From Schmidtea polychroa (Eukaryota), in assembly GCA_044892525.1 (NCBI GenBank), contig CM097885.1, positions 18,602,001 through 18,666,000 of the forward strand: DNA of 64,000 bases, in the 5' to 3' direction. Positions 4,463 through 8,431 of this stretch are shown piece by piece. The position numbers were made by a program, and so were the translations under genes. Within the stretch, counting starts at the first letter, position 1. Every line of letters begins with the position of its first letter. The notes beneath the pieces were generated by a model. The model had not been told where the DNA came from. It ran no database searches and worked only from the letters and a program-made list of their open reading frames with translations.

Positions 4463-7400
4463 CTAAAGCAGACGTTGGTTGAGTGAATGTATTTTGTTCA
4501 GAATCTTTTGCTGTGTCGGATGTATGATCTTTACCAATATCGACTCTAAGATCACTGTCATTGCTGAAGAAGCAGAAGCCGTTTGAACATTAACTACGTC
4601 TTCCATGTTTTGAAAATTATCTTCTACCAAAGAATTCGGTCTTTCGATAACATTAATGTCGACAACATCTGTGCCTAAATGACTATTATGATTTTCATTC
4701 TTGTCTGACACATCTACTTCAGTTTCATTATATTTACTTTCAAAATTTTCTTCTTGATTGTGACTTTTGACAATATTTTCTAATTCATCTGCTGTAACTT
4801 GGTCTCCTTTATCAAAAGCTTTGTCTAATAGTTCAGTATTACTTTTTACAAATTCAGAATAATTATTCTCGTTCTCATTGACTCGATTTTGCTCTATTCC
4901 ATCTTGATTTATAATATCGCTAGATTGTAAATTCTCACATTCATTGCTTTCCCTATCTCCATCTTCGCTAGCCTTTTTGTTTTCATGTGTTTCATCATTT
5001 TCATCCCATTCTTTAATATAATCCATTTCTTCAGAATTATCTACATCATGAATAATCATTTCTCCGTCGTTTAACATTTCCGTTACCGCAAAATAACTCT
5101 GAGCCAAATGCGAACATCTTGGAGCTTGATTTCTTGCAATCCTACCAAGACATGTCCATCCGAGGGGCGTCAACCTTGCAATTGGTTCATGCTTTGCTCC
5201 TGTTACTTCGCGAATAGATCGATGTAGATATGGGTAATCAGAACCAATCAATACATCAATCTGCGTCCTTGTATTCATAACCGGGAAGTTTATATATCGC
5301 AGATGCTTCCATTTCGCCGATAACTTCCTCCAGTTACACATTCCCAGGTCTCCAGTGACCTTTTTTACCACCAGGACGTTCAAATTTACCTTTAAATTGT
5401 TATTGTTGCTTGCCAATAATACCGTCACGGGCTTCGTTTCCAACATTTGTGATTGTCCACCAATCACGCCAACTGGAGTGCTTTGCCACTGTCCTCCCAA
5501 CCCCAGTTCTTGCGCCGCCCAATCGCTAATATAGCTAACATTGCTTGCGTCGTCTAGCAATGCGTTGATCTTGACCTCCTTTCCTTTATTAATCAACTTT
5601 GCTGTAATCGTTCGTAAAGGAACATACATCTTCTTCCTCTGTGTATCTTGAACCGTCATCATTGATGTGTTCTCATTGCTCGGCTCTTGATCTCCATAAA
5701 CTTTGTTCTCTGAGCCATGGAGCAAATTGTGATGCTTTCGAGTACAATCTCTGTCCTTACAAAAGCTCGGTTTTTCGCATTCTCTAACCATGTGAGCTGT
5801 TGTAAGACAATTGTAACAAAGCCGCTTCTTGGTCACAAACTCATTTCGTTCCTTAACAGTCAGCTTTAGGAACTCTGAGCATTGATTTAAATAATGTTCT
5901 GAACCACATTTCACACAAATTGGTTCCTTTTTTCGAGCACTGCTAACTTCTATCTTGCGCCTACTATCCGTTAACTTCGTGCCCCTATTCGCATTTCTGA
6001 AGTTAGTTGTTGAGGCGACAGTTCTACCTTTTGTCCGCCCTTCTCCAAACAGAATGCTCATTGCTTGCCGATGCCTATTAGCTTCCGTTTTGATCCACTC
6101 GGCTAGCGTTTGCACATTTCCCTCTCTCCCCGAATCACAATGGCGTGACCACTGAATCAGCATGGTCTCTGGAAGCTTCTTCAGCAGTTGGTGATACAAC
6201 ATTCCGCTGTTCAACTCGCCTTCCCTCTTCTGATCCTTGAAATTCAGGATGAGGTTTCCCAGCAGCTCTTCAAACCGCTCTAGGTCCTCCAGTACGTTCA
6301 GCCGCACTGGAAAGAACCTCTGCACCGCATCCAGCATCATGGAATAGGATCTTTCTGGTCCCCCATACCTTTCATCAAGTAATTTCATCGCCGCCTCGAA
6401 AGCCTGCGAGCCATATCCAATATAGGCAATTAATTGCAGCGGCTTCCCTTCCAAGTACTGTCTCAGGTACAAGTACTTTCTTTCACTCGGCTCATCCGCG
6501 TCCTCGATGCAGGCTCTCACAATTGCCCTCCATCCAGGATATTCCATTACCTTTCCATTAAAGATCGGCAGCTGCAAGGGTTTCAAACCCATTATGCACT
6601 TCTGTTTCTCATTGGGCTCTTCGCTCCTAAATGATGTTTCTGTGCCCTTCCGCGACTCCACTCTAAAACTCTCTTCCTTCTGCGTGAGGACCAGATCGCC
6701 GATTCTGCTGAAATCCGCTTCTAACCGTTTCAGATCTGCCTCAATTTCCTTTTCTTCTTTCTCCCGCCCTAACTCCCGAGCATTATTCCTCAGCTCCTCC
6801 AATTCGTTTATCACTTCCTCATACTTATCTTCGTATGCCTCCATTCTCCTTTGATCTTCCCCAGGGTCCGATCCATCTCCTAAGGCCCGGTTACGTAGAC
6901 GCCCTAACGAAATCTTCCACCCGGTTCGTCTCTTGTACCCTGCCTCGAACTCCGCATCTGATACTGGACTTCCCCCTGCCAGACCCAAAACCAGATGTAC
7001 CGTGGCTTCTTTCCTAACGTTATAATCTAACAACGTTAGGCCATCTTTTAATACTTTCCCGGCAAAATTAAGTCTTTGTCGCCCTGGGGGTATCCCTTCT
7101 TTTTCTTGAATTTTAGCCTTTACATTCTCAATAGTATCACTTGATTCTACTTCCAAAGTTATTGTTTTTCCAGTCAATGTCTTCACGAATATTTGCATTC
7201 CACCCCTCAATCGCAAAACTAAATGCAAAGTAGACTCCTTTTGAATATTATAATCAGATAATGTTCGCCCATCTTCTAATTGTTTCCCCGCGAAAATTAA
7301 TCGTTGCTGGTCAGGTGGACTACCTTCTTTATCTTGTATTTTCGCTTTAACATTTTCTATCGTGTCACTAGATTCAACTTCGAGAGTAATTGTCTTCCCT

Positions 7401-8431
7401 ATTAATGTTTTGACAAATACCCGCGCCAATCCACATCTAATGGGGTTAGGGAGGGCAGGCCCTAGGGGAAATGTTTCAAAAATAACAAATATAATAAAAA
7501 TATAATACAGCCAATCTACATATAATATAATAAACATACGATACCTATTACATGTATATAATACAATACAAATATCATTCTTAAAAAATATAAATAATAC
7601 CTTGTTCCGGCTGGCTAGCCGGAACCACGCTCTGCTACCATGAATAAATCGAATTGAACGAATAACAATTTTATTCGAAATAGACTCGGTGGAGTCGGCT
7701 CTATGTGGCAACAAAATTTCACAGCATTGAATGATCTGTTCGAAATCATAATTTACATAAACATCATCACTTAAGTCATAATCCGATTTCATAAAGTCTA
7801 AGTTTGATTTTATCACATCGCTCGTTATAGTAGAAGAAATTCTTCCTGTAGCCACAATGCATAAATATCTCGTTTCCTTTGCTAATTGAACTCCTGATTG
7901 ATTGAGACTCGCAATATTGCGTAACTTGTAAATCATAGATCCGTCAATCTCAACCACAGATAAGGCAATATATTGAATTTTATTATCGTCTAATAAATTC
8001 CAAAACAATTTTGTATTAGAAAGCATTTCTACAGAAGATTGTAGAAGATTACATTTGACCACGAGGAGCGCAAACTCACAATTTGCTGTCCAATTATTTG
8101 ACAATACAGAAGGGTAATTAATATTTGATGGAATCTTTCTTAAAAACATCTCAAAATCTTCAGGATTGGCACAATTCTCAATTTTGCTATCAGAATCATC
8201 ACTAAAATGATATTTCATCCATGAAATAAACGCCATTTCAACAAAAGAACTTGTTCCAGCACCGAAAGCTCTTTTTAAACTTCCACCAAATTTTCTGCCA
8301 TTTTCGATGAATTCACTGGTTTCATCAAAATAAGAAATAAGATCTTGGCTTGGAACATCATAAGCTTTAATAAATTTGTAATCAAATTCTTCTTCTTCAA
8401 CTGAAGGATCACATTTCACACCTGAAGCCAT
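4463..8431 (-). CDS. Chimeric polyprotein: cofilin-like start + DUSP12 fragment + unknown cargo (all in LTR), hydrophobic linker, ubiquitin x2, BEL Gag, aspartic protease, acidic tail
   Basis: ATG at 8431 ([10 protein letters not shown]). Ub1 ~7199-7426 ends LRLRGG; Ub2 6971-7198 ends LGLAGG. DUF1759-like [22 protein letters not shown]; knuckles CVKC..H..C, CYNC..H..C, C..C..HHNLLH; protease [12 protein letters not shown] and [13 protein letters not shown]. Confidence 0.85.
7623..7640 (-). promoter_or_regulatory. Primer-binding site complementary to the 3' end of initiator tRNA-Met
   Basis: TGGTAGCAGAGCGTGGTT immediately after the LTR; same sequence at 54763-54780 and 60126-60143. Confidence 0.9.

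Follow-up and report, generated by a model that had tools for sequence, protein, structure and literature searches.

A 64,000-nucleotide stretch of the Schmidtea polychroa genome (GCA_044892525.1, contig CM097885.1, positions 18,602,001 to 18,666,000; hereafter the window) carries two copies, A and B, of a BEL/Pao retrotransposon family whose long terminal repeats (LTRs) are, to judge from the sequence, mosaics of spliced host mRNAs in one frame with the primer binding site (PBS), a linker, ubiquitin (Ub) and Gag. The best explanation, to which we give a probability of about 0.72, is that these elements are translated from a captured ATG, that deubiquitinases free Gag from the product and that the leader ahead of ubiquitin is disposable. 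Translation across the PBS, taken alone, is very likely.

Both open reading frames (ORFs) lie on the reverse strand and start within the 5′ LTR, that of copy A running from 8431 to 4463 (1322 aa) and that of copy B from 55433 to 53673 (586 aa). A sequence-only reading of the window had claimed that copy A is open through about 263 LTR codons and copy B through about 217; the LTR shares are indeed 263 2/3 and 217 2/3 codons, and a His codon spans the LTR/PBS boundary. In copy A, the frame passes through an AATAAA (7670..7675), which is likely a poly(A) signal and here encodes Asn-Lys, leaves the LTR and crosses the PBS for tRNA-Met (7623..7640), which is read as GSRAW and is complementary to the 3′ end of a tRNA-Met gene from a genomic array, with CCA added. 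It continues through an AT-rich, intron-like linker (7462..7600; GT..AG, 139 nt), open in the Gag frame, into two ubiquitin units. Unit 1 (7199..7429) matches Pfam ubiquitin, has no Met of its own (LARVF at 7429) and ends with LRLRGG, while unit 2 (6971..7198) ends with LGLAGG and adjoins Gag at a predicted cleavage site. The Met-less first unit, the linker Met (RYRMF, starting at 7546) and the 139-nt interval between GT at 7600 and AG at 7462 had also been pointed out by the sequence-only reading and were each found as stated. BEL/Pao Gag (DUF1759, Cys/His knuckles) and an aspartic protease occupy 5363..6970 (DUF1759, E 4.7e-8; the Asp_protease_2 match is weak and under the cut-off). The Gag-protease frame then continues into an acidic host-gene piece in place of pol (4415..5072), which is 82% identical to a 2345-codon host frame (L177:1009-8043), occurs in ~95 places and is MAP1B-like by a weak Pfam match (MBL_MAP1B, E 3e-6, under the cut-off). 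Copy B has the same order at 53673..54780, namely the PBS, the linker, Ub1 (ending RGV), Ub2 (ending LAGG) and Gag until a premature stop. Since host sequence stands where pol would be, copies A and B, with Gag-protease only, are non-autonomous.

The start of the copy A frame (8393..8431) consists of the ATG and first 13 codons of cofilin in spliced form; it is 97% identical to exon 2 of the host cofilin gene and matches Cofilin_ADF. The host gene (L157) has an intron directly 3′ of the ATG, and this intron is missing from the element. On this comparison the start ATG, which had been described as borrowed, is that of host cofilin and is captured from its spliced mRNA. It is followed by a 111-nt fragment of phosphatase coding sequence (8282..8392) that stops just short of the catalytic loop, is 94.6% identical to a host gene (L171) and matches DSPc; from the domain layout we take this gene to be DUSP12. 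The next segment (8222..8281) comes from another LTR lineage, in which it was the 5′ leader, and brings a second ATG derived from cofilin; it matches cofilin pieces and the LTR of locus L058, and is joined in frame at an 8-nt microhomology. The remainder (7663..8221) is a spliced 559-nt piece, comprising six exons with five introns gone, of an unnamed host gene at G000:C1:217.0 Mb. This piece is matched with 16 differences by a contig of 4726 nt, the run behind which is guessed to be RNA; the gene has no Pfam match, no homologue scored among 787 candidates, and the protein atlas yielded no name for it. In the 5′ LTR of copy B (54781..55659), the cofilin start (55433-55395) is followed by a longer DUSP12-like piece (55394-54836), from which the 24-nt catalytic loop is deleted in frame. 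The DUSP deletions that propagated measure 24, 24 and 51 nt, and the joints between pieces show microhomologies of 3-8 nt. One cargo gene piece is found on LTRs of both Gag lineages of the family (L175, L176, L058 and L125, compared with window 7641-8704), so that LTRs have been exchanged between lineages.

The whole genome (781 Mb, AT-rich, four large contigs) contains 351 exact LTR/PBS junctions of the family. Frames were counted at 90 of the first 100 of these loci, all on C1, and the linker count includes 21 further non-duplicate loci (111). At 63/90 loci the LTR can be read in the Gag frame over 100 codons or more without a stop, and in the other two frames at 0 and 1; at a length of at least 150 codons, 60 of the 90 are open in sense and 1 in antisense, the latter judged by open length alone. 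Ubiquitin could be located at 87/111 loci. The spacing from PBS to ubiquitin is in frame at 70 of these 87, and the linker is free of stops at 61 of the 70 in-frame loci. Distinct spacings are in frame in 26/41 cases, and those seen at least twice in 10/11; linkers of different subfamilies differ strongly in length and sequence, with the frame kept. Junction frames across copies, the check proposed in the sequence-only reading, are thus strongly non-random. Its further statement that there are several independent in-frame junctions does not hold for copies A and B at the PBS: they have their first 50 codons in common and are 96% identical over 6042-7676, and are therefore not independent witnesses for this junction. 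The excess over chance comes from the counts across the family.

The captured content of the LTRs follows the same frame. When 42 LTR clusters were scanned with Pfam (E<=1e-4), 13/42 Gag-frame translations matched host families, eight in number (EAP30, proteasome, DSPc, TCP1, Ras, Adaptin_N, HSP70 and LIM); the HSP70 locus (L065) may not belong to the family, because no ubiquitin stands behind its PBS. Translations in the other frames gave 2/84 matches, each a frameshift confined to a single locus, in cargo that relatives carry in frame. In full-length relatives a single frame of ~2,100-2,200 codons runs from the LTR through ubiquitin, Gag, reverse transcriptase (YMDD) and the Pao peptidase domain to the integrase motifs. 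Furthermore, an unbroken frame from the LTR into Gag is found in 13/15 elements whose LTR pairs are at least 99.3% identical vs 1/9 older ones (Fisher p 5e-4; n = 24 loci, each of whose two LTRs is 600 nt or longer, the threshold of 99.3% having been set after seeing the data). The frame being intact in young and broken in older copies, it follows that copies arrive intact and then decay.

The last ubiquitin unit has the ubiquitin fold, stands in frame before Gag and ends with Gly-Gly in 85/91 elements, across two Gag lineages whose protease regions are ~49% identical; the next residue is mostly Ser or Asn, and never Pro. Non-final units end with GG in 33/44 cases, and before Ub1 most relatives have IRGG and copy A has IRCG. 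Pairwise ratios of nonsynonymous to synonymous change (pN/pS), taken from 5 and 8 related copies, are 0.17 and 0.29 for Gag and 0.24 and 0.29 for the last ubiquitin. For Ub1 the ratio is 1.21, a value at which this unit is evolving neutrally. In the DUSP cargo, compared with the host gene, few changes are available: singletons number 19 N/7 S (pN/pS ~0.9) and shared changes 21 N/4 S (1.8). By these ratios the DUSP cargo evolves nearly neutrally, in contrast to the conserved Gag and last ubiquitin. The sequence-only reading had suggested selection for translation from the captured start codon. The frame counts support it; on the other hand, selection appears to act on the open frame and the last ubiquitin, not on the amino acids of the cargo. 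As a separate observation, Ub1 ends with Gly-Val in 10/44 units, including that of copy B (window 54338-54350); this is the same change as in laboratory uncleavable ubiquitin.

Several observations weigh against translation of a disposable leader from the captured ATG. The 90 loci lie on one chromosome and the copies are related, so that the counts are not independent events, and a frame that reaches Gag without any break is found at only 35/90 loci. The conserved tails of the last ubiquitin are LGLAGG or LRLCGG, not the canonical LRLRGG, and arginines missing from a ubiquitin tail may slow deubiquitinases. The proteasome cargo has a pN/pS of 0.57, below neutral. A donor-like AAG|GTA at PBS+40, found at 72/90 loci, is missing from the other 18/90. 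At its 5′ end the LTR has two stable hairpins in a non-cargo part that recurs across the family (8575..8700 in copy A, reverse strand); the fold comes to -60 kcal/mol over 130 nt, a value without shuffle control. Downstream of the 5′ hairpin, short out-of-frame ATGs precede the main ATG in 35/36 listed leaders (2 in copy A, 3 in copy B), which does not agree with a strict scanning model in which ribosomes enter at the LTR end and use the first AUG. The context of the start, with A at -3 in 19/36 first Mets vs 228/628 internal ATGs, is too weak to use. Most linkers contain in-frame Mets. Since microhomology between coding sequences is itself in frame in 41-46% of cases, the expected baseline, the null for in-frame joints lies above one third. 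Finally, the related loci L067 and L098 have in common an 11-nt out-of-frame deletion in the linker, with an in-frame ATG downstream, which may be a propagated exception.

The proteasome value leads to an alternative which we consider unlikely, namely that the leader is translated in the same way and the captured protein pieces are themselves under selection. Released cargo-ubiquitin fragments (a dead phosphatase, a proteasome subunit, cofilin and Rab pieces are the candidates) would then act on host pathways, and a hydrophobic linker would anchor the precursor to membranes. A small number of cargoes are widespread (proteasome alpha, DUSP12, cofilin), 15/25 DUSP-bearing LTRs have lost the catalytic loop of the phosphatase and a 19-residue hydropathy peak of at least 1.6 is found in 10/14 linkers, all of which would fit. 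However, the changes in the DUSP cargo look neutral, the cargoes are arbitrary fragments cut within domains, the linker has a pN/pS of ~1 (one boundary being mis-parsed), and T-rich DNA gives hydrophobic codons unaided.

It is quite unlikely that Gag is made from a downstream start, either a linker Met or an internal promoter, with the LTR frame as a by-product that is open because it is recent host coding sequence and in frame through microhomology. The linker Mets, the out-of-frame upstream ATGs, the in-frame bias of microhomology and the exception at L067 and L098 speak for such a start. However, this bias is not enough to explain the family-wide frame excess: at 45% it cannot place 8/8 Pfam-named families in one frame, together with cofilin, the copy A gene and the in-frame deletions. 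In addition, no stop interrupts the interval between the PBS and the first linker Met, the former 5′ leader in copy A is read through without a stop, and the frame, unbroken in young copies, is lost as copies grow older.

The linker deserves separate consideration, as the sequence-only reading had cautioned that an intron there would shift the frame. If splicing occurred at 7600/7462, the LTR frame would stop after 19 codons, and the ubiquitin frame, traced upstream across the assumed splice, meets a TAG at the PBS; splicing therefore cannot link the LTR start to Gag. The acceptor motif with TAG occurs 108 times in the genome, and with another base replacing the T, as an intron-less copy would show it, 0 times. 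In contigs from runs guessed to be RNA, joints on copy A and on a full-length relative keep the linker ends; no GT..AG joint was seen in these contigs on copy A and one full-length relative, although contigs drop rare forms, and stretches that no contig covers, such as 7504-7597, do not count as evidence. A constitutive intron is rejected on the strength of the length changes that keep the frame, the lack of intron-less copies and the TAG at the PBS. The earlier caution is right in that the GT and AG exist, and is weakened by the 10/11 repeated spacings in the unspliced frame and by the lack of any intron-less copy. That the linker is a regulated intron, with a spliced RNA encoding cargo plus a short tail as off-switch and the unspliced RNA as Gag precursor and genome, is highly unlikely: the donor-like motif at 72/90 loci, the 108 exact acceptor-like motifs and the two stops met after splicing would suit it, but the contigs, within the limit just given, hold no GT..AG joint and full-length-type subfamilies are without the acceptor motif. 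Such an intron is compatible with the best explanation and would only add a control layer to it.

The donor-like site more likely has another role. AATAAA is found 20-45 nt ahead of the LTR end at 62/90 loci vs 3.2% of control windows, which would fit a long R region with a poly(A) signal ~35 nt ahead of the LTR end. The AAG|GTA after the PBS would then be a U1 site that silences the poly(A) signal of the 5′ LTR, as in HIV-1, and would not act as the donor of an excised intron. In HIV-1, the major splice donor suppresses 5′ LTR poly(A) (PMC3694450). The likeness lies in a poly(A) signal near the LTR end and a donor-like site beyond the PBS; the difference lies in the distance, 195 nt vs ~75 nt here, and in the fact that both signals here are inside the reading frame.

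According to the proposed explanation, translation of the full-length RNA likely begins at the captured host ATG, and the product is likely cut by host deubiquitinases behind the Gly-Gly of the last ubiquitin, which would give Gag a fixed N-terminus. Reverse transcriptase would switch onto co-packaged mRNAs while copying the long R, and because the switch would happen at this step, the cargo would end up in both LTRs. Out-of-frame captures would stop Gag synthesis and would not be propagated; since captures that break the frame would die out, the frame of the leader would matter and its content mostly not. The ubiquitin spacer would make the leader disposable, and very different cargoes would for this reason be tolerated. 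Copies A and B would be mobilised by related full-length members of the same build; among 150 scored matches, none was a full-length partner with the Gag type of copy A, the longest close frame having 1395 codons.

By its domains the family belongs to BEL/Pao, with paired TG..CA LTRs, a short target duplication, a PBS and a polypurine tract. The order protease, reverse transcriptase, RNase H and integrase is found in its full-length relatives (RVT_1, Peptidase_A17, DUF5641, YMDD and integrase motifs), and copies A and B are without pol. It resembles BEL/Pao elements as they are described in PMC3118150 in its DUF1759 Gag, Pao peptidase (PF05380), reverse transcriptase, DUF5641, single long ORF, TG..CA LTRs and 5-bp duplication. 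In that survey (de la Chaux and Wagner, 2011) the Flow superfamily includes two Schmidtea families, and the word ubiquitin is missing from its main text (PMC3118150). The nearest outside relatives are ordinary BEL/Pao polyproteins with 20-33% identity. A ubiquitin domain is not listed in any of 9 such relatives, which cover a limited length range, and two outside relatives begin with their own Met, unlike the family described here. Searching for Ub-Gag in other organisms was uninformative, as the matches (best 120 of 441) were swamped by polyubiquitins.

The AUG of Ty1 is located in its LTR. Ty1 also has a tRNAiMet PBS inside the Gag frame, with a 53-nt 5′ UTR and the PBS after nt 94 (PMC7969010), so that the premise of the sequence-only reading, a Gag start that normally lies beyond the PBS, has exceptions. 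The Ty1 start is its own and fixed, and lies a few codons upstream of the PBS, whereas here 100-260 exchangeable host codons precede the PBS and ubiquitin stands between them and Gag. With respect to the captured pieces, the closest parallel is LTR-mediated retroposition as reported for animals and for maize Bs1, with partial spliced mRNAs, multi-gene chimeras and microhomology joints (Tan et al., 2016; PMC5131818). Exactly that case is seen in the host sequence that stands in for pol in copies A and B (5072-4415 in copy A): in the cases that paper describes, the retrocopy replaces internal ORFs and the copies are non-autonomous. By contrast, the LTR cargo of this family lies inside both LTRs, on full-length members and in frame with Gag.

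Captured ubiquitin is known from cytopathogenic pestiviruses (BVDV CP1, Osloss and CP Rit; BVDV, bovine viral diarrhoea virus), in which even an N-terminally truncated ubiquitin is cut by host hydrolases to give an authentic viral N-terminus (PMC8310069). The likeness is that of a captured cellular ubiquitin used as a processing signal, predicted in our case. The pestiviruses in that account are sporadic RNA-virus recombinants in which NS3 is released, while here ubiquitin is a fixed feature of two Gag lineages, its tails are non-canonical and it stands upstream of a capsid protein. Among planarian elements, the giant gypsy elements Burro/GYPSM1 also carry host-like domains, including a Ub/SUMO-like one (PMC6431247); these elements are of gypsy type and 30 kb long, and the domains described are in the polyprotein after Gag, not in the LTR (PMC6431247). 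Hence each feature has a precedent by itself: Ty1 has its PBS within the Gag frame, the capture of partial mRNAs through template switching is established, and in pestiviruses ubiquitin serves as a processing signal. Their combination was not found described in the literature searched; a prior mention is possible.

As a rule, LTRs and the surroundings of the PBS are taken to be non-coding control sequence, and an LTR element that captures a gene is usually broken in the process. In this family, capture continues within the LTRs of full-length members, and a selection signal for translation across a poly(A) signal and a PBS can be measured. If the ubiquitin spacer permits capture, this would explain how a retroelement samples host mRNAs at little cost, and hundreds of dated template-switch events would offer a natural series for studying which RNAs get co-packaged. 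Through these LTRs, cofilin, DUSP12 and further genes also acquire false paralogues by the dozens to hundreds, a possible source of error in S. polychroa when genes are annotated, reads are mapped or RNAi is designed. A broader view can be put forward only tentatively: the LTR may have been turned into a translated, exchangeable cargo bay, with the start codon and leader outsourced to 5′ ends captured from abundant host mRNAs, and with Gag released by a detuned captured ubiquitin; every active copy, solo LTR and 3′ LTR would be a source of new chimeric host-protein fragments, so that an exon-shuffling engine would form part of the replication cycle of a full-length retrotransposon, and some cargoes might be kept for their effect on the host. 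The cargo frames of the two 3′ LTRs extend beyond the LTR into the flanks (3069-3863, 264 aa; 50861-51586, 241 aa); as they run into flanking DNA, 3′ and solo LTRs could seed chimeric genes.

The remaining parts of copies A and B, also on the reverse strand, are arranged as follows. The 5′ LTR of copy A (7641..8704) is 1064 nt long and bounded by TG...CA; its 3′ LTR (3073..4136) has a polypurine tract in front and an identical cargo frame. The pair is 99.7% identical and flanked by the target duplication GTAGG. In copy B, the 3′ LTR (50934..51815) is 99.5% identical to the 5′ LTR, which is without its first bases. Its flanks carry a direct duplication of ~150 nt (98%; 55669-55817 and 50790-50940) by an (ATT)n run instead of the 5-bp one; these flanks and the shortened LTR possibly reflect a one-ended or repaired integration. 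The window further contains, again on the reverse strand, a solo LTR of the family (16401..17290) with the cofilin start, a different, frameshifted cargo and an AATAG target duplication, and an old decayed relative (57530..60143, lower boundary approximate) with a PBS, a short linker, two broken ubiquitin units and Gag remnants. The 5′ LTR of this relative is absent and its 3′ LTR holds a WD40 piece, which we take to be RACK1-like.

Elsewhere in the genome, elements form head-to-tail tandem arrays, apparently with common LTRs, at L077 and at G000:C1:233.50-233.51 Mb. The tRNA-Met genes are found in a tandem array of 454-bp period at G000:C1:79.32-79.39 Mb (L133), and a 17-nt motif of it occurs 1245 times genome-wide. 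Within the window, ORFs at 14347-14904, which has no Pfam match, and 56299-56781 resemble remnants of Penelope-type reverse transcriptase/GIY-YIG. Finally, two DNA polymerase B ORFs (32679-34445, Pfam DNA_pol_B_2, and 61958-63979) are presumably Polinton-like; the first sits inside long inverted repeats (31151-32688 / 34920-36577).

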